Positions 3,117 to 36,864 of a stretch of 45,051 nucleotides of DNA are shown here, one piece after another. The stretch is from Vectrevirus T145P2: the sequence record OZ035747.1; one strand, 5' to 3'. The notes under the pieces are model-generated. The model saw nothing but the letters and a program-made list of their open reading frames with translations, did no database searches and was not told the origin of the DNA. How positions within the stretch are numbered: position 1 is the first letter of the stretch; every line of letters starts with the position of its first letter. Both the position numbers and the translations under genes were made by a program.

Positions 3117-3410
3117 ATGGCTAAATATGGTACTACAGGTTCTGTTACTGGTCAGGCTTTTCGAGTAAAAGCAGTACAAACTATTGCAACGGCAATCCCG
3201 ATGCCTGTTGTTAAAGAAGCAGACCTTAAGAGTAAAGATCACCCTATCAACATCAAACATTTATCAGGTAAACAGAAAGGTGCAATGGTTGCTCTTGAGA
3301 AAAGTGACACAACCTTACATATTGCTGTTGCACGTGGTAGTGAACCAACAGACCCTTGGGATGTAACTGGCATGGAATCGCTCGCTGTCACTCCAGCAGG
3401 TGGAGAATAA
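3117..3410 (+). CDS. hypothetical protein, paralog B of a tandem pair
   Basis: AAGGAGG then ATG 3117; 97 aa; clear similarity to 2820..3098. Confidence 0.65.
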   Translation: MAKYGTTGSVTGQAFRVKAVQTIATAIPMPVVKEADLKSKDHPINIKHLSGKQKGAMVALEKSDTTLHIAVARGSEPTDPWDVTGMESLAVTPAGGE

Positions 3411-3754
3411 TGCTTAACAAATACTTCAAGCGCCGTGAGTTCGCTTGCCGTTGTGGGTGCGGTACATCCACTGTTGATGCTGAATTACTACAAGTAGTCA
3501 CAGATGTGCGTGAGCACTTTGGTTCTCCTGTAGTTATCACTTCTGGGCACCGCTGTGCTAAGCACAATGCTAATGTAGGAGGAGCTAAGAACTCCATGCA
3601 TCTTACTGGTAAGGCTGCTGACATTAAAGTTACTGGTATTGGGCCAATGGAGGTTCGTGCATACCTGTGCAATAAATACCCAGATAAATATGGTATTGGT
3701 GCTTATCCTACTTTCACTCATATTGATGTGAGGGATAATAAAGCACGATGGTAA
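3410..3754 (+). CDS. peptidase M15-family zinc peptidase, probable endolysin
   Basis: ATG 3410 overlapping previous stop; 114 aa; FACRCGCG, SGHRCAKHN, MHLTGKAADI and THID motifs characteristic of LAS/M15 peptidases. Confidence 0.78.
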   Translation: MLNKYFKRREFACRCGCGTSTVDAELLQVVTDVREHFGSPVVITSGHRCAKHNANVGGAKNSMHLTGKAADIKVTGIGPMEVRAYLCNKYPDKYGIGAYPTFTHIDVRDNKARW

Positions 3755-4328: not shown

Positions 4329-4351
4329 ATTTACTGGACACTATAGAAGAG
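4329..4351 (+). promoter_or_regulatory. phage RNAP promoter upstream of tailspike genes
   Basis: ATTTACTGGACACTATAGAAGAGG, exact consensus. Confidence 0.85.
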
Positions 4352-5899: not shown

Positions 5900-5953
5900 G
5901 CGCAACTTTTCTTAAAGGTTATCATGATGGTAGCCTTTCAGAAAGGAGGTTAC

Positions 5954-8389
5954 ATGATTCAAAGACTAGGTTCTTCATTAGTTAAATTCAAGAGTAAAAT
6001 AGCAGGTGCAATCTGGCGTAACTTGGATGACAAGCTCACCGAGGTTGTATCGCTTAAAGATTTTGGAGCCAAAGGTGATGGTAAGACAAACGACCAAGAT
6101 GCAGTAAATGCAGCGATGGCTTCAGGTAAGAGAATTGACGGTGCTGGTGCTACTTACAAAGTATCATCTTTACCTGATATGGAGCGATTCTATAACACCC
6201 GCTTCGTATGGGAACGTTTAGCAGGTCAACCTCTTTACTATGTGAGTAAAGGTTTTATCAATGGTGAACTATATAAAATCACGGATAACCCTTATTACAA
6301 TGCTTGGCCTCAAGACAAAGCGTTTGTATATGAGAACGTGATATATGCACCTTACATGGGTAGTGACCGTCATGGTGTTAGTCGTCTGCATGTATCATGG
6401 GTTAAGTCTGGTGACGATGGTCAAACATGGTCTACTCCAGAGTGGTTAACTGATCTGCATCCAGATTACCCTACAGTGAACTATCATTGTATGAGCATGG
6501 GTGTATGTCGCAACCGTCTGTTTGCCATGATTGAAACACGTACTTTAGCCAATAACGCACTAACCAATTGTGCATTGTGGGATCGTCCTATGTCTCGTAG
6601 TCTGCACCTTACTGGTGGTATCACTAAGGCTGCAAATCAGCAATATGCAACAATACATGTACCAGATCACGGATTATTCGTGGGCGATTTTGTTAACTTC
6701 TCTAATTCTGCGGTAACAGGTGTATCAGGTGATATGACTGTTGCAACGGTAATAGATAAGGACAACTTCACGGTTCTTACACCTAACCAGCAGACTTCAG
6801 ATTTGAATAACGCTGGAAAGAGTTGGCACATGGGTACTTCTTTCCATAAGTCTCCATGGCGTAAGACAGATCTTGGTCTAATCCCTAGTGTCACAGAGGT
6901 GCATAGCTTTGCTACTATTGATAACAATGGCTTTGTTATGGGATATCATCAAGGTGATGTAGCTCCACGAGAAGTTGGTCTTTTCTACTTCCCTGATGCT
7001 TTCAATAGCCCATCTAATTATGTTCGTCGTCAGATACCATCTGAGTATGAACCAGATGCGTCAGAGCCATGCATCAAGTACTATGACGGTGTATTATACC
7101 TTATCACTCGTGGCACTCGTGGTGACAGACTTGGAAGCTCTTTGCATCGTAGTAGAGATATAGGTCAGACTTGGGAGTCACTGAGATTTCCACATAATGT
7201 TCATCATACTACCTTACCTTTTGCTAAAGTAGGAGATGACCTTATTATGTTTGGTTCAGAACGTGCAGAAAATGAATGGGAAGCAGGTGCACCAGATGAC
7301 CGTTACAGGGCATCTTATCCTCGTACCTTCTATGCACGATTGAATGTAAACAATTGGAATGCAGATGATATTGAATGGGTTAACATCACAGACCAAATCT
7401 ATCAAGGGGACATTGTGAACTCTAGTGTAGGTGTAGGTTCTGTTGTAGTTAAAGACAGCTACATTTACTATATCTTTGGTGGTGAAAATCATTTCAACCC
7501 AATGACTTATGGTGACAACAAAAATAAAGACCCATTTAAAGGTCATGGACACCCTACTGATATATACTGCTATAAGATGCAGATTGCAAATGACAATCGT
7601 GTATCTCGTAAGTTTACATATGGTGCAACTCCTGGTCAAGCTATACCTACTTTCATGGGTACTGATGGGGTACGAAATATCCCTGCACCTTTGTATTTCT
7701 CAGATAACATTGTTACAGAGGATACTAAAGTTGGACACTTAACAATTAAAGCAAGCACAAGTTCCAATATACGATCTGAAGCGCAGATGGAAGGTGAATA
7801 TGGCTTTATTGGCAAGTCTGTTCCAAAGGATAACCCAACTGGTCAACGTTTGATTATTTGTGGTGGAGAAGAGACTTCGTCCTCTTCAGGTGCACAGATA
7901 ACTTTGCACGGCTCTAATTCAAGTAATGCTAATCGTATCACTTATAACGGAAATGAGCACCTATTCCAAGGTGCACCAATCATGCCTGCTGTAGATAACC
8001 AGTTTGCTGCTGGTGGGCCTAGTAACCGATTCACTACCATCTACCTAGGTAGTGACCCTGTTACAACTTCAGATGCTGAACACAAGTACGGCATCTCTAG
8101 TATTAATACCAAGGTGTTAAAGGCTTGGGGTAGAGTTGGTTTTAAACAGTATGGTTTGAATAGTGAAGCAGAGAGGAATCTTGATAGCATACACTTCGGT
8201 GTCTTGGCTCAGGATATTGTAGCTGCTTTTGAAGCTGAAGGATTGGATGCCATTAAGTATGGAATTGTGTCCTTCGAAGAAGGTAGGTACGGTGTGAGAT
8301 ATAGTGAAGTTCTAATCCTAGAGGCTGCCTACACTCGCCATCGTCTTGATAAATTAGAGGAGATGTACGCCGCTAATAAAATCAGTTAA
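5954..8389 (+). CDS. tailspike 2: endo-N-acetylneuraminidase (endosialidase) with C-terminal intramolecular chaperone domain
   Basis: AAAGGAGG then ATG 5954; 811 aa; C-terminal SDAEHKYGISS...LDSIHFGVLAQD region resembles the self-cleaving chaperone domain of K1-phage endosialidases (from memory). Confidence 0.85.
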   Translation: MIQRLGSSLVKFKSKIAGAIWRNLDDKLTEVVSLKDFGAKGDGKTNDQDAVNAAMASGKRIDGAGATYKVSSLPDMERFYNTRFVWERLAGQPLYYVSKGFINGELYKITDNPYYNAWPQDKAFVYENVIYAPYMGSDRHGVSRLHVSWVKSGDDGQTWSTPEWLTDLHPDYPTVNYHCMSMGVCRNRLFAMIETRTLANNALTNCALWDRPMSRSLHLTGGITKAANQQYATIHVPDHGLFVGDFVNFSNSAVTGVSGDMTVATVIDKDNFTVLTPNQQTSDLNNAGKSWHMGTSFHKSPWRKTDLGLIPSVTEVHSFATIDNNGFVMGYHQGDVAPREVGLFYFPDAFNSPSNYVRRQIPSEYEPDASEPCIKYYDGVLYLITRGTRGDRLGSSLHRSRDIGQTWESLRFPHNVHHTTLPFAKVGDDLIMFGSERAENEWEAGAPDDRYRASYPRTFYARLNVNNWNADDIEWVNITDQIYQGDIVNSSVGVGSVVVKDSYIYYIFGGENHFNPMTYGDNKNKDPFKGHGHPTDIYCYKMQIANDNRVSRKFTYGATPGQAIPTFMGTDGVRNIPAPLYFSDNIVTEDTKVGHLTIKASTSSNIRSEAQMEGEYGFIGKSVPKDNPTGQRLIICGGEETSSSSGAQITLHGSNSSNANRITYNGNEHLFQGAPIMPAVDNQFAAGGPSNRFTTIYLGSDPVTTSDAEHKYGISSINTKVLKAWGRVGFKQYGLNSEAERNLDSIHFGVLAQDIVAAFEAEGLDAIKYGIVSFEEGRYGVRYSEVLILEAAYTRHRLDKLEEMYAANKIS

Positions 8390-8589
8390 GCAAGCTGCTG
8401 TACGCCAGAACGCAGAAGAACTTATTCAATCAGGACGTGACCCTAAGCAGGCATACGCCATTGCCAAGGATGTACAACGTCGTGCCTTGAAGAAATCTTC
8501 TGCATCTTCTGCTTAAGCAGGTTAATATCTTAGTGTACACAAGGGCAGACCTAGGTTTGCTCTTAGTGCCATCAAAGGAGGGTGTAGGT

Positions 8590-8697
8590 ATGTTATCTTT
8601 GTTGTGTATACTCAGTGATGTCCTAGGTCGTAAGAGGTACATTCTTAGTGAAGACCAAATAAGGGACGAGAAGATACGGAGGTCGCTCACAAAGTAA
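8590..8697 (+). CDS. small hypothetical ORF (35 aa) at the extreme right end of the gene map
   Basis: GGAGG then ATG 8590 with 8-nt spacing; basic peptide; no homolog recognised. Confidence 0.3.
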   Translation: MLSLLCILSDVLGRKRYILSEDQIRDEKIRRSLTK

Positions 8698-9055
8698 CCA
8701 AAGTCAAAATTTTGATATAGGCGTGTGTGAGGTGTCTCGCCCTCGCCCTCGCCGGATTTCCCCCATATGGGGCCGCGCTGCGGTTGGCTTGGGAGTTGGG
8801 CTGGGCTGGTCCGTCTTCGACGGGTGGCCTAGGGCTTGCCGAGGTCTGCTCTTAGTGGCTGCACAAGGAGAACGCCTAGGAAGCGCTAGGGCACGCCTTA
8901 GTATTGGACAAGGTGATTGCCTTAGTGCAACCGCTTAGGGCTTACACAGGCCGTTTTAGGGCCATTCATGAGCGTTTGACAGGGTGGGCGTGGGTGGGCT
9001 ATCTGTTCGTTTCGCTCCACTACGTTACGCTACACTCACCGCGCTTGTGTATCCT

Positions 9056-9064
9056 TGGTATAAT
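9056..9064 (+). promoter_or_regulatory. candidate host sigma70 extended -10 element
   Basis: TGGTATAAT (TGnTATAAT) in the non-coding terminal region. Confidence 0.35.
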
Positions 9065-9406
9065 CCTGATGGATGGCTTAGGTTAGACTTAGTGGGCTAC
9101 CTTAGTTAAAGCCTTAGTGCTTAGCTTAGTATCAACTTAGTAGTGTACCTTAGTAAGTCTTAGTGTCTTCTCTTAGTGATTGCATAGCTAAAGCTATAAG
9201 ATGCAATTAGGTCGCGGTCGGTAGACCGCTAATAAGAAGTAATAGTAATAAGATGCAGTAGGAGGAACACCAGAAACCTAGCCAACCTAGTCTATCCTAG
9301 CTCTGTATCTATTGCTTTCCTTAGTCTCACATGTTAGACAACCTAGGTTTATCTTAGTAGTTGTGACATGTATCACATAAATAATCTATCTTAGTGCGAT
9401 TTAGTG

Positions 9407-9435
9407 TTGACATAGGCAGTTAACAGGTATACATT
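9407..9435 (+). promoter_or_regulatory. candidate host sigma70 early promoter
   Basis: TTGACA - 17 nt - TACATT. Confidence 0.55.
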
Positions 9436-9658
9436 AGCAATCAGTCGGGAGCGACATTAAACACTCAGGGTGAATGATAGAGAGCGTCCTTAACTATCCG
9501 GCCTAGCTACTGAAGCCGTTAAACAATGTTAGATAGTGGAAGATGGCGCAAGCATAACCTACCACGATAAACCAAGGTTAGCGCAATGCTCTTTAACAAT
9601 TTGCTTAGTGTAACCTGTGTATGCCGTGGTTAATTACTTATTGAATGAGGGATTAACT

Positions 9659-9775
9659 ATGAATTACGAAGAAATGTATGAAGTCTATTTCGACTCATTA
9701 GATGAAGGAGAAGAAGCATTAACCTTCGCTGAGTTTATGGAGGCTTTATGGAGTTTCTATCATGACTCTAAATAA
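9659..9775 (+). CDS. small acidic early protein (38 aa)
   Basis: ATG 9659; first ORF after the host promoter; not in ORF track (<60 aa). Confidence 0.4.
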   Translation: MNYEEMYEVYFDSLDEGEEALTFAEFMEALWSFYHDSK

Positions 9776-9938
9776 CCGTGAACTATCCGTCCTCTTCACT
9801 CTGTTATGCTACATGATTCGTAACAACGAATTACTTACAGATGACGAGTTGGCACTATATCACCGCTTTCTTAACGAAGGTTGGACAGATACAGTTAACC
9901 ATAAACGTGACTTGATGAAGGAGTTAGGCAATGTATAA
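9762..9938 (+). CDS. small early protein (58 aa)
   Basis: ATG 9762; overlaps neighbours by a few nt as is common in T7-like early regions. Confidence 0.4.
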   Translation: MTLNNRELSVLFTLLCYMIRNNELLTDDELALYHRFLNEGWTDTVNHKRDLMKELGNV

Positions 9939-11050: not shown

Positions 11051-11380
11051 ATGGAACGCAACGCTAACGCTTACTACAACCTTCTGGCTGCAACTGTTGA
11101 AGCATTCAACGAGCGCATCAAGTACGATGAGATTCGTGAAGATGATGATTACTCTGATGCACTGCATGAGGTTGTAGATAGCATGGTGCCAGTTTATTAC
11201 AGCGAAATCTTTACTGTGATGGCTGCTGATGGCATTGATGTTGATTTTGAAGATGCTGGTTTGATTCCTGATACGAAGGATGTAACCAAGATTCTACAAG
11301 CTCGCATCTATGAAGCTCTTTATAATGATGTACCAAATGACAGCGATGTAGTTTGGTATGAAGGCGAAGAAGAGGAATAA
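11051..11380 (+). CDS. ocr: Ocr-like DNA-mimic anti-restriction protein (T7 gp0.3 homolog)
   Basis: 109 aa, very acidic; VPVYYSEIFTVMAADGIDVDFEDAGLIPDTKDVTKILQARIYEAL closely parallels the T7 Ocr core as I recall it. Confidence 0.88.
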   Translation: MERNANAYYNLLAATVEAFNERIKYDEIREDDDYSDALHEVVDSMVPVYYSEIFTVMAADGIDVDFEDAGLIPDTKDVTKILQARIYEALYNDVPNDSDVVWYEGEEEE

Positions 11381-12711: not shown

Positions 12712-15339
12712 ATGCAAGACCTACACGCTATTCAACTTCAACTTGAAGAAGAAATGTTTAACGGCGGTATCCGTCGCTTTGAAGCTGACCAACAACGCCA
12801 GATTGCATCCGGTAATGAATCAGACACGGCATGGAATCGACGCTTATTGTCCGAACTAATCGCACCTATGGCGGAAGGTATTCAGGCTTACAAGGAAGAA
12901 TACGAAGGCAAGAGAGGTCGTGCACCCCGTGCATTAGCTTTCATTAACTGCGTAGGAAACGAAGTGGCAGCATATATCACCATGAAAATCGTTATGGATA
13001 TGCTGAATACAGACGTTACCTTACAAGCTATCGCTATGAATGTAGCAGACCGCATCGAGGACCAAGTACGTTTTAGCAAGCTGGAAGGTCACGCAGCTAA
13101 GTATTTTGAGAAAGTGAAGAAGTCGCTTAAGGCTAGCAAGACTAAATCTTATCGTCATGCGCACAACGTAGCGGTAGTAGCTGAGAAATCTGTTGCTGAC
13201 CGTGACGCGGATTTCTCCCGTTGGGAGGCATGGCCTAAAGACACCTTGCTGCAAATCGGTATGACCTTGCTCGAAATATTGGAGAATAGTGTATTCTTCA
13301 ATGGTCAACCTGTCTTCCTTCGTACCTTGCGCACTAACGGCGGAAAGCATGGTGTTTACTATTTACAGACCAGTGAACATGTTGGCGAGTGGATAACTGC
13401 ATTTAAGGAACATGTAGCTCAGCTCAGCCCTGCCTATGCACCTTGCGTTATACCTCCCCGCCCTTGGGTATCACCTTTTAACGGTGGGTTTCATACTGAG
13501 AAAGTAGCAAGCCGTATTCGTCTGGTAAAAGGCAATCGTGAGCACGTCCGCAAGCTGACCAAAAAGCAAATGCCAGCCGTTTATAAGGCTGTTAACGCTT
13601 TGCAGGCAACTAAGTGGCAGGTTAATAAAGAGGTTTTACAGGTTGTGGAGGACGTTATACGTCTAGACCTCGGCTATGGTGTGCCTTCCTTTAAACCACT
13701 CATCGACCGTGAGAACAAGCCAGCTAATCCAGTGCCGTTAGAGTTCCAGCACCTGCGAGGCCGTGAACTTAAAGAGATGCTAACGCCGGAACAATGGCAA
13801 GCCTTCATCAACTGGAAAGGCGAATGTACCAAGCTGTATACCGCTGAAACTAAGCGCGGCAGCAAATCGGCGGCGACCGTCCGCATGGTTGGGCAGGCAC
13901 GTAAATACAGCCAGTTTGACGCCATCTACTTCGTGTATGCACTGGACAGCCGCAGCCGCGTCTACGCGCAATCTAGCACGCTCTCTCCGCAATCAAACGA
14001 CTTAGGCAAGGCATTGCTCCGTTTTACCGAAGGGCAGCGCCTCGATAGCGCTGAGGCGCTTAAATGGTTTTTGGTGAACGGGGCTAATAACTGGGGTTGG
14101 GATAAGAAGACTTTTGACGTGCGCACCGCTAACGTGCTGGATAGTGAATTTCAAGACATGTGCCGCGACATTGCAGCGGATCCGCTTACCTTCACTCAAT
14201 GGGTGAATGCCGACTCCCCTTACGGCTTCCTTGCTTGGTGCTTTGAATATGCGCGTTATCTGGATGCACTGGATGAAGGCACGCAAGACCAATTCATGAC
14301 GCACCTCCCCGTCCATCAAGATGGTAGTTGTTCTGGTATCCAGCACTACAGTGCTATGCTACGCGATGCAGTAGGTGCGAAAGCAGTAAACCTTAAGCCC
14401 TCTGATTCTCCTCAAGATATTTATGGTGCCGTTGCGCAGGTAGTAATTCAGAAGAATTATGCATACATGAATGCAGAGGATGCGGAAACCTTCACTTCTG
14501 GCAGCGTGACTTTAACAGGTGCGGAACTGCGTAGCATGGCTAGTGCGTGGGATATGATAGGAATCACTCGCGGCCTGACCAAAAAGCCCGTAATGACACT
14601 ACCTTACGGCAGCACACGTCTAACCTGCCGTGAGTCAGTGATTGATTATATCGTTGATTTGGAAGAAAAAGAGGCCCAACGGGCTATTGCGGAAGGGCGT
14701 ACCGCCAATCCTGTACATCCTTTTGATAATGACCGCAAAGACAGCCTGACACCTAGCGCAGCTTATAACTATATGACAGCTTTAATCTGGCCTTCTATTT
14801 CGGAAGTGGTTAAAGCTCCTATAGTGGCAATGAAAATGATTCGTCAGCTTGCACGTTTCGCAGCTAAAAGAAACGAAGGCTTAGAATATCCCTTACCAAC
14901 TGGCTTCATCTTGCAACAAAAGATAATGGCTACCGATATGCTCCGCGTATCCACTTGCTTGATGGGTGAAATCAAGATGAGTCTCCAGATTGAAACAGAT
15001 GTAGTTGATGAAACGGCAATGATGGGTGCGGCTGCTCCTAACTTCGTCCATGGTCACGATGCTAGCCACCTGATTCTGACTGTATGTGACCTAGTGGATA
15101 AAGGTATTACATCCATTGCAGTCATCCATGATTCTTTCGGTACTCATGCAGGACGTACCGCAGACCTGCGGGATAGCTTAAGGGAAGAAATGGTTAAGAT
15201 GTATCAAAACCATAATGCCCTGCAAAACCTGCTAGATGTGCACGAAGAGCGTTGGTTAGTAGACACCGGAATCCAAGTACCAGAGCAAGGAGAGTTTGAC
15301 CTTAACGAAATCTTAGTTTCAGACTATTGTTTCGCATAA
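12712..15339 (+). CDS. single-subunit DNA-directed RNA polymerase (T7 gp1-like)
   Basis: 875 aa; collinear with T7 RNAP including PFCFLAFCFEY-like [27 protein letters not shown] and IHDSFGTHA motifs. Confidence 0.97.
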
Positions 15340-24973: not shown

Positions 24974-25914
24974 TAGATGCCGATATGTTGCCTTACATCG
25001 TCGCGTATACAATCAGCGACATGACTTATGTACGAGCCACAACTCGTGTTAAGTCAGGACAAGTCCCATCAATCAAAGATACGCCTGAGTGTAAGCAAGC
25101 GTGTGACCGTGTGAACTCCTTGCTTAACTCTTGGGTGTATGCAGCAGAATGTGATGCAGCTAAGTTATTCATGACGAAATCAGAAGCTAACTTCCGTGTC
25201 CGCCTAGCATTCACCAAGCCTTATAAAGGTCAACGTAAGACCGAGAAGCCTCCATTCTTCTATGAATTGCGAGAGCATCTCTTAGAGGTTCACGGTGCAA
25301 TCTTGGCAGATGGAGAGGAAGCAGACGACCTCATGAGTATCGCACAATGGGACAGCCACCGCCGCTTCCAGCAAGATACAGGTAACGAGTTCCCTATCGG
25401 TAGTCCAGAGCATAAAGCATTCTCTGATACTTGCATCGTTTCCTTGGATAAGGATTTGATGATTGTTCCCGGTTGGCATCTACAGCCGGGTCAAGAGAAG
25501 AAGTGGGTAGAGCCTATGGGCTGGCTTGAGCTACGCCGTAAGGCTAATGGGCAAGTCAAAGATCTAAAAGGTGCTGGCCTCATGTTCCACTATGCACAGA
25601 TGATTATCGGTGATGATATTGATAACTATGCTGGCATACCAGGTCGTGGTGCTAAATATGCCTATGATCTTCTCAAAGGTTGTAAGACAGAGAAAGAATT
25701 GTACATGGCAGTGCTTGGTGCTTACAAAGCTAAGTTCGGTCATGGACAGGTTAAGATTAAGAATTACCGAGGTGGTTATCGGGTGGGCAAAGCCTTTGAC
25801 CTTATGCTTGAATGCGGTCGCTTAGCTCACATGGCTAGGTTCAAAGGTGATATATGGCGAGCCGATAAGAACCCAATCTTGTGGGGAGATGATGCGGAAT
25901 GGTTAGCAAATTAA
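24886..25914 (+). CDS. 5-prime to 3-prime exonuclease (T7 gp6-like, FEN family)
   Basis: AAGGAG then ATG 24886; 342 aa; ALIDADMLPY, DDLMSIAQ, SLDKDLMIVP, GDDIDNYAGIPG parallel T7 gp6 motifs. Confidence 0.9.
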   Translation: MRPNFDFGATVSEDNNLILWPTEGNRIALIDADMLPYIVAYTISDMTYVRATTRVKSGQVPSIKDTPECKQACDRVNSLLNSWVYAAECDAAKLFMTKSEANFRVRLAFTKPYKGQRKTEKPPFFYELREHLLEVHGAILADGEEADDLMSIAQWDSHRRFQQDTGNEFPIGSPEHKAFSDTCIVSLDKDLMIVPGWHLQPGQEKKWVEPMGWLELRRKANGQVKDLKGAGLMFHYAQMIIGDDIDNYAGIPGRGAKYAYDLLKGCKTEKELYMAVLGAYKAKFGHGQVKIKNYRGGYRVGKAFDLMLECGRLAHMARFKGDIWRADKNPILWGDDAEWLAN

Positions 25915-26312
25915 AAGCATCGGAGGTGGCAGCTTATAAGAAGGAATTGCTAGATAAGCAAGGATGGAAATGCCCTCTGTGTGGTGGCAGTCTCAAAGCT
26001 GTCACACCTGTAAACCGTGTACTTGACCATGACCATGAGACAGGATTCTGCCGTGCTGTTGTATGCCGAGGTTGCAATGGTGCGGAAGGGAAGATTAAGG
26101 GTGTTATCTCTGGTTATGGCAAGGCGGGTAATAACCGTTACTTCCAGCTTCAATGGTTAGAGAGATTGTACGAATACTGGAAGTTACATAGTACGCCTCA
26201 GACAGATAAGTTATATCACAAACATCAAACGGAGGCAGAGAAGCGCGAGGCTAAGAACCGTAAGGCACGCCTTGCTTATGCAAGAAAGAAGAAGGAGGTT
26301 AAAGTTGGGTAA
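25899..26312 (+). CDS. recombination endonuclease VII-like Holliday junction resolvase
   Basis: 137 aa; CPLCGG...DHDHETG...CRGCNGAEG zinc/His-Me motif. Confidence 0.8.
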   Translation: MVSKLKASEVAAYKKELLDKQGWKCPLCGGSLKAVTPVNRVLDHDHETGFCRAVVCRGCNGAEGKIKGVISGYGKAGNNRYFQLQWLERLYEYWKLHSTPQTDKLYHKHQTEAEKREAKNRKARLAYARKKKEVKVG

Positions 26313-29100: not shown

Positions 29101-29233
29101 AGGAATGGAAATGCTTGAGATGATTCTCAAGCCCTCTTCTCCTAAGGTGACTAAGACTCATGAAGAGTTAATCGTTGATGAAGTTAAGCGTTACATCATG
29201 GATTGTGTCAGAGCACAACTGGTGGTCCAATGA
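29063..29233 (+). CDS. hypothetical protein (start uncertain)
   Basis: Track ORF 29051..29233 uses TTG; ATG candidates at 29063 and 29105. Confidence 0.35.
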   Translation: MVQTKKKPTISFEGMEMLEMILKPSSPKVTKTHEELIVDEVKRYIMDCVRAQLVVQ

Positions 29234-29691
29234 TACGTCCAGCTTCCTTCCTAGATATTCCTGAGATTATAAACCTTGGGAATAAATATGTGGAAGAGGA
29301 AGTCAAGGTTGTAGCCCACCACTCAGCCTCATGGAATGCAGAACAAAGTGCACATAACCTTTGTGCATCTCTTAGTAGAGAAGATTTATTCCTATGGGTT
29401 GCTGTAGATGAAGGGCAGATTGTAGGGTTCCTGTGGGCTGGCTATCACGAGTTGGCCCCTTGGACACCTGTAAGAGTTGCCTCTGACATTCTCTTTTATA
29501 TTATACCAGAGAGGCGAGGAACACTACTTGGTATGCGTCTCATCAAAGCCCTAAAGCAATGGGCTAGTGATAATGAATGCTCTGAGGTTCGCCTGTCTAT
29601 CGCCTCTGGTATTAATGAAGAACGTGTCGGACGTATGTATAAGCGACTTGGCTTTGAACCGTTTGGCACTGTGTATAACCTGAAGTTCTAA
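29230..29691 (+). CDS. GNAT-family N-acetyltransferase
   Basis: ATG 29230; IVGFLWAG ... RRGTLLGMRLIKAL ... RMYKRLGFEP acetyl-CoA-binding core. Confidence 0.7.
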   Translation: MIRPASFLDIPEIINLGNKYVEEEVKVVAHHSASWNAEQSAHNLCASLSREDLFLWVAVDEGQIVGFLWAGYHELAPWTPVRVASDILFYIIPERRGTLLGMRLIKALKQWASDNECSEVRLSIASGINEERVGRMYKRLGFEPFGTVYNLKF

Positions 29692-34462: not shown

Positions 34463-36864
34463 TGGAAGTACAAGGTTCATTAGGTAGACAAATCCAAGGG
34501 ATTAGCCAGCAGCCGCCAGCGGTACGCTTGGATGGTCAGTGCACAGCTATGGTTAATATGATACCTGATGTAGTGAATGGTACTCAATCACGCATGGGTA
34601 CAACTCATATTGCAAAGATACTTGATGCGGGGACTGATGACATGGCCACTCATCATTATCGCAGAGGTGATGGTGATGAAGAGTATTTCTTCACGTTGAA
34701 GAAAGGACAAGTTCCTGAGATATTTGATAAGTATGGGCGCAAATGTAATGTGACTTCACAAGATGCACCTATGACCTACCTCTCTGAGGTTGTTAATCCA
34801 AGGGAAGATGTGCAATTCATGACGATAGCTGATGTTACTTTCATGCTTAATCGTAGGAAAGTAGTTAAAGCTAGTAACAGGAAGTCACCTAAAGTTGGAA
34901 ACAAAGCCATTGTGTTTTGTGCGTATGGTCAATATGGTACATCTTATTCCATTGTAATTAATGGGACCAACGCTGCTAGTTTTAAAACACCGGATGGTGG
35001 AAGTGCAGACCATGTTGAACAAATTCGAACTGAACGTATCACTTCTGAATTGTACGCTAAGTTGCAGCAATGGAGCGGTGTGAGTGACTATGAAATACAA
35101 AGAGACGGTACTAGTATATTTATCGAGAGACGGGATGGTGCTAGCTTTACAATAACAACCACCGATGGTGCAAAAGGTAAGGATTTAGTGGCTATCAAGA
35201 ATAAAGTTAGCTCTACTGACCTACTCCCTTCTCGTGCGCCTGCTGGTTATAAAGTGCAAGTGTGGCCTACTGGCAGCAAACCTGAGTCTCGTTACTGGCT
35301 GCAAGCTGAGCCTAAAGAGGGAAACCTTGTGTCTTGGAAAGAAACAATAGCTGCTGATGTATTACTTGGGTTTGATAAAGGCACAATGCCTTACATTATT
35401 GAACGTACAGGTATCATCGACGGCATAGCTCAATTCAAGATAAGACAAGGTGATTGGGAAGATCGTAAAGTAGGTGATGACTTGACTAACCCTATGCCTT
35501 CTTTTATTGATGAGGAAGTACCCCAGACAATAGGTGGAATGTTCATGGTGCAGAACCGCCTATGCTTTACAGCAGGTGAAGCGGTTATTGCTTCTCGTAC
35601 ATCATACTTCTTCGATTTCTTTCGTTATACGGTTATCTCTGCATTGGCAACTGACCCATTTGATATTTTCTCAGATGCTAGTGAAGTCTACCAGCTAAAA
35701 CATGCAGTGACCTTAGATGGCGCTACCGTGTTGTTCTCTGATAAGTCACAATTCATACTGCCAGGCGATAAGCCTTTAGAGAAGTCAAATGCACTGCTTA
35801 AGCCTGTTACAACATTTGAAGTGAACAATAAGGTGAAGCCAGTAGTAACTGGTGAATCGGTAATGTTTGCCACTAATGATGGTTCTTACTCTGGTGTACG
35901 AGAGTTCTATACAGACTCTTATAGTGACACTAAGAAGGCACAAGCAATCACAAGTCATGTGAATAAGCTTATCGAAGGTAACATTATCAACATGGCAGCA
36001 AGTACCAATGTCAACCGATTGCTTGTCACTACCGATAAATATCGTAACATAATTTACTGCTATGATTGGTTATGGCAAGGTACAGACCGTGTACAATCAG
36101 CATGGCATGTATGGGAGTGGCCTATGGGTACAAAGGTGCGAGGTATGTTTTATTCTGGTGAATTACTTTATCTACTCCTTGAGCGAGGCGATGGCGTCTA
36201 TCTGGAGAAGATGGACATGGGTGATGCACTAACCTATGGTTTGAATGACCGCATCAGAATGGATAGGCAAGCAGAGTTGATCTTCAAGCATTTTAAAGCA
36301 GAAGATGAATGGATATCTGAACCACTTCCTTGGACTCCTACTAACCCAGAACTTTTGGATTGCATCTTAATAGAAGGGTGGGATTCATATATTGGAGGTT
36401 CTTTCCTGTTCAAATATAACCCTAGTGATAACACCTTGTCTACAACCTTTGACATGCATGATGATAACCACGTAAAAGCGAAGGTTATTGTTGGTCAGAT
36501 TTACCCTCAAGAGTTTGAACCAACACCTGTAGTTATCAGAGATAGGCAAGACCGTGTATCCTATATTGATGTACCTGTTGTGGGGTTGGTTCACCTTAAT
36601 CTTGATATGTATCCTGATTTCTCCGTGGAAGTTAAGAATGTGAAGAGTGGTAAAGTACGCAGGGTGCTAGCGTCAAACCGTATAGGTGGTGCTCTCAACA
36701 ACACAGTAGGTTATGTTGAACCAAGGGAGGGTGTCTTCAGATTCCCACTGAGGGCTAAGAGCACGGATGCTGTTTATCGTATTATTGTAGAATCACCTCA
36801 TACATTCCAGCTTCGCGATATTGAGTGGGAAGGGAGCTACAATCCAACCAAAAGGAGGGTCTAA
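34462..36864 (+). CDS. tail tubular protein B (gp12-like)
   Basis: GGGAGGA then ATG 34462; 800 aa; N-terminal GISQQPP as in T7 gp12. Confidence 0.93.
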   Translation: MEVQGSLGRQIQGISQQPPAVRLDGQCTAMVNMIPDVVNGTQSRMGTTHIAKILDAGTDDMATHHYRRGDGDEEYFFTLKKGQVPEIFDKYGRKCNVTSQDAPMTYLSEVVNPREDVQFMTIADVTFMLNRRKVVKASNRKSPKVGNKAIVFCAYGQYGTSYSIVINGTNAASFKTPDGGSADHVEQIRTERITSELYAKLQQWSGVSDYEIQRDGTSIFIERRDGASFTITTTDGAKGKDLVAIKNKVSSTDLLPSRAPAGYKVQVWPTGSKPESRYWLQAEPKEGNLVSWKETIAADVLLGFDKGTMPYIIERTGIIDGIAQFKIRQGDWEDRKVGDDLTNPMPSFIDEEVPQTIGGMFMVQNRLCFTAGEAVIASRTSYFFDFFRYTVISALATDPFDIFSDASEVYQLKHAVTLDGATVLFSDKSQFILPGDKPLEKSNALLKPVTTFEVNNKVKPVVTGESVMFATNDGSYSGVREFYTDSYSDTKKAQAITSHVNKLIEGNIINMAASTNVNRLLVTTDKYRNIIYCYDWLWQGTDRVQSAWHVWEWPMGTKVRGMFYSGELLYLLLERGDGVYLEKMDMGDALTYGLNDRIRMDRQAELIFKHFKAEDEWISEPLPWTPTNPELLDCILIEGWDSYIGGSFLFKYNPSDNTLSTTFDMHDDNHVKAKVIVGQIYPQEFEPTPVVIRDRQDRVSYIDVPVVGLVHLNLDMYPDFSVEVKNVKSGKVRRVLASNRIGGALNNTVGYVEPREGVFRFPLRAKSTDAVYRIIVESPHTFQLRDIEWEGSYNPTKRRV

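Follow-up and report, generated by a model that had tools for sequence, protein, structure and literature searches.

A probable concatemer junction with strand-specific CTTAGT repeats in the genome of a K1E-like Vectrevirus

The stretch of DNA analysed here, which is referred to in its full length of 45,051 nucleotides as the window (OZ035747.1), contains a region that is very probably the concatemer junction of a K1E-like Vectrevirus, where the assembly has fused the two ends of the genome and reduced the terminal repeat to a single copy. The virion DNA was inferred to be 45,318 bp long, starting at window position 8735 and ending at position 9001, with the segment 8735-9001 at both ends and a leeway of about 2-16 nt. 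The junction carries many copies of the word CTTAGT in one orientation which, judged by their layout, are the SP6-group counterpart of the CCTAAAG repeats of T7.

The assignment of the window to this group followed from several comparisons. The 1.3 kb around the junction was 99.0% identical to Vectrevirus T145P2 and 98.7% identical to Escherichia phage K1E (KY435490), and the same 1.3 kb matched 122 phage records, nearly all of them from the SP6 group (Autographiviridae, Molineuxvirinae). The closest records to the window had nucleotide identities of 91-99%. When the last 300 and the first 300 bases of the window were joined, they gave one unbroken match of 99.7-99.8% inside linear reference genomes; in K1-5, for example, this match covers 35068-35665, a location flanked by the tail-fibre/holin genes on one side and the small terminase gene on the other. 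Since the joined ends are contiguous in the linear references, the window represents an entire genome whose opening point is arbitrary and, consequently, the true ends must fall inside it. On these alignments, the window holds the genome of a K1E-like Vectrevirus in complete and circularly permuted form; the phage belongs to the SP6 group of the T7 supergroup. The two features by which the genus Vectrevirus is recognised, high nucleotide identity and a K1-specific endosialidase tailspike, were both found.

The genes that define the setting of the junction could be identified. The terminase is of the T7 type, with the small subunit encoded at 30-329 (PF11123, E 3.6e-16) and the large subunit at 722-2659 (PF22530, E 1.6e-35). 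The K1 endosialidase tailspike (PF12217, PF12219, PF12195 and PF12218) extends from 5924 to 8389, a small gp48-like ORF occupies 8367-8516, the first early ORF begins with the ATG at 9660, and the single-subunit RNA polymerase is encoded at 12712-15339. A tRNA scan found none. The sequence-only reading had located the region between the last late gene and the first early gene, and this was borne out, with the tailspike and the gp48-like ORF on one side and the ATG at 9660 on the other; a host promoter lies just inside the left end.

The position of the ends was deduced from relatives that carry the repeat twice. Exact repeats were found at both record ends of KAW1A4500 (267 bp), K1E AM084415 (288 bp), K1-5 (234 bp) and SP6 (174 bp), all of which start with (TC)TCGCCCTCGCC or TCTCTCGGCC and end with GGGCTA, and all of their boundaries aligned to window positions 8735 and 9001. 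The window thus has the same repeat boundaries as K1E, K1-5 and KAW1A4500 (Vectrevirus) and SP6 (Zindervirus), and its length of 267 bp, equal to that of KAW1A4500, differs from the other lengths through internal indels. The flanking sequences matched as well, on the left GTGTGAGGTG/TCTCGCC and on the right GGGTGGGCTA/TCTGTTCG, where the slash marks the boundary. Moreover, the records of fTuEco01 and ACG-C91 start at window 8735, and those of Mt1B1_P10, EC120, mutPK1A2, AAPEc6, R4596 and vB_Ro_P3a end at window 9001, with annotations of a 'direct terminal repeat' in Mt1B1_P10 and a 'redundant repeat' in mutPK1A2; the ends of some deposited relatives were perhaps set by homology and not by experiment. 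The published length of the short terminal repeats of KAW1A4500 is 266 bp (PMC6563267), and for UAB_Phi78, a relative of SP6, Bal31 digestion together with run-off sequencing located a repeat of 179 bp (PMC4837284). The start of K1-5 is 2 nt further in than that of K1E, and the repeat annotated in the current UAB_Phi78 record lies to the left of that of SP6 by 16 nt at the left boundary and by 10 nt at the right boundary.

The direct terminal repeat of the window (8735-9001, + strand, 267 bp, single collapsed copy) extends from TCTCGCCCTCGCC to GGGTGGGCTA. Its GC content was 61.4%, rising to 69% in its left part, compared to 44.9% for the window, so that the GC-rich block described previously is real and corresponds to the terminal repeat. 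The repeat contains CTCGCC three times (8736-8753), CTTAGT at 8851, 8897 and 8921, and several C(C/T)TAGG variants. Because the repeat occurs just once in the window, the length of the virion DNA would be 45,051 + 267 = 45,318 bp. The earlier statement that the exact ends cannot be read from a single copy was too pessimistic, since homology predicts them at 8735 and 9001 within about 2-16 nt.

The single copy can also be read in another way, since it carries no direct information about the ends: the termini might lie elsewhere, or the DNA might be packaged by a headful mechanism, and the region would then be a mere regulatory intergenic stretch. Several observations make this reading extremely improbable, 1) the exact repeats of many relatives have these two positions as their boundaries, 2) the terminase is T7-type, and 3) the contexts of both cut sites are homologous to those of T7. 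The original proposal that the region contains the genome termini was sustained by the exact repeats of the relatives, bounded at 8735 and 9001, together with the T7-type terminase and the T7-homologous cut contexts.

The homology of the two cut-site contexts to T7 is apparent from the alignments. The 90 bp around the predicted left cut aligned to the left cut of T7 with a score of 35, compared to a mean of 8.3 for shuffled sequences, and none of 500 shuffles reached this score. The elements in common with T7 were a stretch of AAAAT(A/T)T, the sequence TGAG(G)TG immediately preceding the cut, and TCTC as the first four bases, and in both genomes TTCCCCCATA(T)GGGG starts at nt 24-26. A palindrome, CCCCATATGGGG, is located at 8761-8772 within the element CCCCCATATGGGG (8760-8772, no strand assigned), which starts 26 nt from the inferred left end. 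The likeness of this palindrome to an element in the T7 terminal repeat, which the sequence-only reading had suggested, holds, as the T7 counterpart CCCCCATAGGGGG starts at T7 nt 26; the window resembles T7 in having TCTC at the left end and CCCCCATA(T)GGGG 26 nt in. Related CCCC(A/G)TAGG elements were found at about +25 in T3, K1F, phiKMV, SP6 and K1-5. Just outside the left cut, a 45-bp block (8690-8734, + strand) was nearly invariant from SP6 to K1E in the alignment and includes a perfect palindrome, TCAAAATTTTGA, at 8704-8715. This block is a candidate for the terminase recognition or cleavage context of the left end.

The right boundary is marked by a class II pause/termination signal of T7-type RNA polymerases, TATCTGTT (9000-9007, + strand), which straddles it (TA/TCTGTT) and is the only + strand copy in the 45-kb window. 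The signal occupies the same place in T7, where it constitutes the class II pause site CJ (nt 161, with a repeat of 160 bp), and in T3 (nt 232, with a repeat of 231 bp). It was present on the boundary in 10 of the 11 Molineuxvirinae checked (KAW1A4500, K1E, K1-5, SP6, UAB_Phi78, CrRp3, GRNsp03, IME184, PM116 and PM93), and the remaining phage, ULIP33, has ATCTATT. The context of the right cut includes CTATCTGTT, common to the window and T7 (4/500 shuffles). The signal is present here, and by analogy it is expected to work as it does in T7.

A perfect TTGACA (8976-8981) is situated 18 nt upstream of the boundary signal. A promoter spanning the boundary, TTGACA-18-TATCTG, was considered; this arrangement is conserved but lacks the critical last T and is at best a possible promoter. 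The promoter mechanism described for T7 CJ in a 2026 preprint, in which the TGn is provided by ATCTGTT in combination with a downstream TA, was not transferable, as TCGTTT is found where the -10 element would be needed.

The window and T7 have T7-type terminase subunits and downstream host promoters in common, but appear to differ in two respects. First, T7 has the phage promoters phiOL and phiOR by the junction and no equivalents were found at this place in the window: a search of 8517-9659 that allowed up to 3 mismatches gave no phage-type promoter, although a very divergent one is possible, and the nearest upstream of the 12 in the window is at 4330. Consequently, the polymerase would arrive at the junction on long late transcripts. 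Second, no homologue of T7 lysozyme (gp3.5, Amidase_2), which in T7 partners the polymerase and strengthens its pausing, was found among the ten ORFs of 97-162 aa that were scanned, and the endolysin belongs to Peptidase_M15_3.

The main early host promoter is of the sigma-70 type, TTGACA-17-TACATT (9407-9435, + strand), with 10 of 12 consensus matches, and is located 673 nt from the inferred left end. By analogy with T7, the genomes would be replicated into head-to-tail concatemers, each junction of which has the repeat once. In the course of late transcription, the phage RNA polymerase would cross the junction and pause where TATCTGTT marks the right boundary of the repeat, and the paused polymerase would, as in T7, engage the small and large terminase subunits so that maturation begins. 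The terminase would cut at both boundaries, with the repeat duplicated during packaging, and at the next infection the left end would enter the cell first, carrying the early host promoter. T7 internalises roughly the first 850 bp of its genome without transcription, so a promoter at 673 nt would fit the same scheme of entry.

The word CTTAGT occurs 18 times at 8529-9609, always on the + strand and never on the - strand. The copies begin at 8529, 8562, 8644, 8851, 8897, 8921, 9088, 9101, 9113, 9125, 9136, 9149, 9159, 9172, 9320, 9353, 9390 and 9604 (all + strand). In comparison, the rest of the window, 44 kb, has 13 copies on the + strand and 19 on the - strand. The number expected per strand in the region is about 0.4 (Poisson P about 1e-23), or 0.35 when calculated from the base composition of the region itself, so the count of at least 18 copies that had been described as far above chance was confirmed. 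The extended word is mostly YCTTAGTR, and 11 of the 18 copies read CTTAGTG.

The copies are distributed on both sides of the repeat and within it. Three are upstream of the repeat, at -205, -172 and -90 relative to its start, three are inside, at 117, 163 and 187, and 12 are downstream, eight of them at +87 to +171 and the others at +319, +352, +389 and +603. The upstream copies (8529, 8562 and 8644) are in the unique right-end segment between the last conserved CDS and the repeat (8517-8734, + strand), where the first two form a conserved CTTAGT-N27-CTTAGT box (8529-8568); similarly paired copies 33-34 bp apart were found in KAW1A4500, K1E, K1-5, SP6 and GRNsp03. The third right-end copy, at 8644, is present in the window but not in K1E, K1-5 or SP6. 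The eight-copy array (9088-9177, + strand) lies in the left unique end and starts 87 bp beyond the repeat; its spacings are 13, 12, 12, 11, 13, 10 and 13 bp (mean 12.0). It is followed by three copies at 9320, 9353 and 9390 (9320-9395, + strand), whose 33- and 37-bp spacings are conserved from SP6 to K1E, and by a last copy (9604-9609, + strand) situated 51 nt before the ATG at 9660 of the first early ORF. The box at 9320-9360 resembles the right-end box at 8529-8568.

The comparison with other phages indicated that the word belongs to the phage lineage. K1E, K1-5, KAW1A4500 and SP6 resemble the window in the CTTAGT word, the positions of the copies and the eight-copy array. The layout including the 33- and 37-bp spacings is common to KAW1A4500, K1E and SP6, and K1-5 keeps the 33-bp pair and then differs. 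At the genome ends of phages that infect E. coli, Citrobacter, Salmonella, Klebsiella and Proteus, no hexamer was more frequent than CTTAGT, which had no or almost no copies on the reverse strand. Other phages have other words, C(C/T)TAAAG in T7 and T3, CCTACAG in K1F and CCTGGC in phiKMV, and K1F has a K1 host, as does K1E, yet has no CTTAGT. The word thus tracks the phage lineage and not the host, which points to a phage-encoded reader.

The resemblance to T7 extends to the arrangement. The sequence-only reading had likened the region to the T7 left end with its CCTAAAG repeats, and the junction rebuilt from the ends of the T7 record did contain 13 copies of CCTAAAG, all on one strand. Both phages have strand-specific short repeats on both sides of and inside the terminal repeat, with an array phased at 12-13 bp inside the left end. 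The T7 array consists of CCTAAAG at a spacing of about 13 bp and starts 15 bp after the repeat, whereas that of the window consists of CTTAGT at 12 bp and starts 87 bp after it.

The conservation of the array was determined from 24 distinct sequences taken from GenBank and IMG/VR; the IMG/VR pattern scan returned 112 loci, of which only 18 were true relatives. The majority frequency was 0.93 in the motif columns compared to 0.69 in the spacer columns (Mann-Whitney P about 1e-11, for columns that are not phylogenetically independent). At the level of sequence conservation, this shows that selection acts on the CTTAGT word and its phasing, each phage lineage having its own word. Alternatively, the repeats could have arisen neutrally, through local duplication or slippage in non-coding DNA, and serve no function. 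Tandem Repeats Finder (TRF) described the array with a period of 48 repeated 1.9 times, that is, as two blocks of four words, and the two-copy 48-bp unit indicates that duplication did contribute to the array. A neutral origin is nevertheless very improbable, considering that several genera have kept the word while their spacers have diverged, that the strand bias is 18 to 0, that from SP6 to K1E the copies hold conserved places with respect to the repeat, and that T7 has the same architecture with a different word.

The function of the words was considered in the light of their location. Tentatively, and as a possibility that falls short of being probable, the CTTAGT copies are putative cooperative binding sites for a phage-encoded maturation or packaging protein, most simply the small terminase, and the eight-copy array phased at 12 bp would mark the approach to the left-end cut. 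A role in packaging or maturation is favoured because the copies flank both cut sites at conserved distances and in a uniform orientation. In lambda cos (cosQ-cosN-cosB) and SPP1 pac, the cleavage sites are flanked by short repeats that are bound by the small terminase. These systems provide a working analogy for how the putative CTTAGT array might act, one of arrangement and not of sequence or protein homology; moreover, they have cohesive ends or headful packaging, in contrast to the direct terminal repeats described here.

A serious rival, although a rather unlikely one, is that CTTAGT acts at the start of infection, the left-end sites controlling how the genome enters or how the host polymerase carries out early transcription; a phage or host protein might, for example, bind them and modulate the early promoter or later shut it off. 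It is to be taken seriously because most of the copies are on the end that enters first and some abut the early promoter or lie inside it. Twelve of the 18 copies are in the left unique end, the first to enter by analogy with T7, one is 51 nt before the first early gene, and the -35 hexamer of the main early promoter is immediately preceded, on its 5' side, by a (C/T)TTAGTG word. The promoter of K1-5, PM93 and IME184 is TTGACA-17-TACTAT or TTGACA-17-TAAGAT and has a CTTAGT in its spacer. However, the repeat itself and the right unique end also have copies, whose positions are conserved and distant from any host promoter, the eight-copy array is more than 230 bp upstream of the promoter, and the association of the word with phage lineage instead of host argues against a host reader. 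The overlap or abutment of copies with the early promoter fits a role in transcription or entry as well as one in packaging.

Between the array and the early promoter is a conserved twin-hairpin block (9184-9272, + strand), which is shared, like the early promoter, with K1E, K1-5, KAW1A4500 and SP6 and has no evident counterpart in T7. It consists of two 6-bp hairpins, ATAGCT-AA-AGCTAT (hairpin 1, 9184-9197, + strand) and GCGGTC-GGTA-GACCGC (hairpin 2, 9214-9229, + strand), each followed by TAAGATGCA (at 9197 and 9249), and then the invariant GTAGGAGGAACACC. Scattered matches to TAAGATGCA occur elsewhere in the window. In hairpin 1, 98.8% of the cells were paired and four of the six pairs had changed on both sides, compared to 13-39% paired in slid controls. 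The arms of hairpin 2, which were tabulated directly since the MAFFT alignment had misplaced them, were GCGGTC/GACCGC or GCTTGC/GCAAGC and always paired at six of six positions; the evidence is weaker for this hairpin, as it amounts to essentially one split between clades. An Rfam scan of 8400-9800 gave no match at E values up to 1, single-sequence folding of 9170-9290 on both strands was unremarkable (z about -1.3), and no T-run follows the hairpins. No conserved host promoter was found for the block, the scan detecting only the promoter at 9407 and a weak one at 9363. TAAGAT was rejected as a -10 element for the block, as it has no usable -35 or TGn.

The hairpins raise the question of whether they and the CTTAGT words serve replication or recombination of the ends, by acting as a secondary origin, by signalling priming or by promoting the formation of concatemers. 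In T7, phiOL, which has an equivalent position, is the site of a secondary origin; this counts in favour of such a role, as does the A-rich stretch between hairpin 2 and the second TAAGATGCA; the pairing maintained through compensatory changes would suit a structure in single-stranded DNA or in RNA. Against this, T7 origins are promoter-dependent whereas no phage promoter was found here, the hairpins have neither an Rfam match nor exceptional folding energy, and CTTAGT has no link to a primase or an initiator. A role in replication is accordingly considered improbable. Also doubtful is the suggestion that the phased CTTAGT array and the adjacent covarying hairpins form one cis-acting left-end module across genera of Molineuxvirinae. 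In one version of such a module, a ring of the small terminase would wrap around the array and so signal that packaging is to end, and the adjacent structured DNA or RNA element would act in end replication or early regulation.

The region of about 1 kb had been described as non-coding, and for the most part this stands. The exception is a possible small ORF of 35 aa (8590-8697, + strand) behind a conserved ribosome-binding site, AAAGGAGG, with AGGAGG at 8576-8581 and with both the ribosome-binding site and the ATG conserved at 8576-8592; the conservation of this site suggests that part of the region may be coding. The peptide itself lacks conservation and is unrelated to those encoded at the same place in relatives. 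The counterparts are K1-5 gene 49 and, at the same place, SP6 gp52, and in K1E AM084415 only 8 codons are present. Two further local features were noted. The sequence TGGTATAAT at 9056-9064 was found in the window alone among ten aligned sequences, and a 21-nt inverted repeat (9340-9360 and 9559-9579) was not conserved in five relatives and was therefore taken to be due to chance.

The terminal region is of a kind already known for K1E, K1-5 and SP6 and ordinary in this phage group; since it is known in these phages and homologous to the T7 concatemer junction, the feature is not novel. What is added here is the predicted position of both ends, the presence of a class II pause signal at the right boundary, the evidence for selection on CTTAGT and the covarying pair of hairpins. 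In practical terms, the analysis provides the predicted start (8735), end (9001), length (45,318 bp) and 267-bp repeat of this genome, and it suggests that the ends of SP6-group genomes can be set from a permuted assembly by means of TCTC, CCCCATA-GGGG at +26 and TATCTGTT on the right boundary. To our knowledge, no function has been assigned, from the publication of the T7 sequence onwards, to the short repeats beside the T7-type terminal repeat. The selection on the word and its phasing, with a word proper to each lineage, would point to a reader encoded by the phage.

The eight-copy array of CTTAGT words (9087-9177) was resolved by Tandem Repeats Finder into 1.9 copies of a 48-bp unit with 80% matches and four words per unit, which suggests that the array was enlarged by duplication of a four-word block. 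Immediately downstream, a block at 9184-9272 contained two hairpins, each with a 6-bp stem (9184-9197 and 9214-9229). A copy of TAAGATGCA lay 3' of each hairpin, and an invariant GTAGGAGGAACACC came next. The block was retained in Vectrevirus, Zindervirus, Acadevirus and the Klebsiella Molineuxvirinae, with compensatory changes in the stems. No Rfam match, T-run or conserved upstream promoter was found for it. Between the hairpin block and the following CTTAGT copies, the word CCTAG occurred three times (9277-9300) at a spacing of 9-10 bp (CCTAGCCAACCTAGTCTATCCTAG), an arrangement kept in most relatives.

Two promoter-like sites were located near the right boundary of the inferred terminal repeat. 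The first, a perfect TTGACA 18 nt 5' of TATCTG, spanned the boundary itself (8976-9005); a promoter-like site would result only at the left end of the genome or in concatemers. The arrangement was retained in almost all relatives; its promoter activity is doubtful because the -10 hexamer lacks the critical final T. The second, TGGTATAAT at 9056-9064, was a perfect extended -10 element; the equivalent position in the other nine aligned sequences, including KAW1A4500, K1E (AM084415), K1-5 and SP6, was occupied by a TTAGGTTATTCC-like sequence. TGGTATAAT may represent an additional, lineage-specific early promoter.

Upstream of the repeat, an open reading frame at 8367-8516, a homologue of K1-5 gene 48 and KAW1A4500_00057, shared 23 nt with the 3' end of the tailspike gene and was well conserved, with 42 of 49 residues identical to the KAW1A4500 protein. 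The start position was ACG in the window and ATG in the relatives, and there was no alternative in-frame start nearby. Possible explanations for the ACG are that translation starts at a non-canonical codon, that the base was misread in sequencing, or that the gene has been lost. In the adjoining region (8576-8697), AAAGGAGG followed by ATG was kept in five phages, while the peptides encoded downstream were unrelated, extending to 35 residues in the window and to only 8 codons in K1E (AM084415). K1-5 gene 49 and SP6 gp52 appeared to encode small hydrophobic peptides; in T7, the equivalent position is occupied by gene 19.5.

Elsewhere in the window were an endolysin of the Peptidase_M15_3 family (3356-3754), an early-region homologue of the DNA mimic Ocr (11051-11380), an endonuclease VII-type protein (25899-26312) and a GNAT acetyltransferase (29203-29691). 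None of the ten window ORFs scanned was a T7-type amidase lysozyme.

The record of the SP6 relative UAB_Phi78 (GU595417.2) started 16 nt upstream of the equivalent of the SP6 left end, its annotated direct terminal repeat (1-180) stopped 10 nt short of the SP6-equivalent right boundary, and a second copy of the repeat was absent from the record. Therefore, the genome ends as deposited in the SP6 group are not fully consistent.
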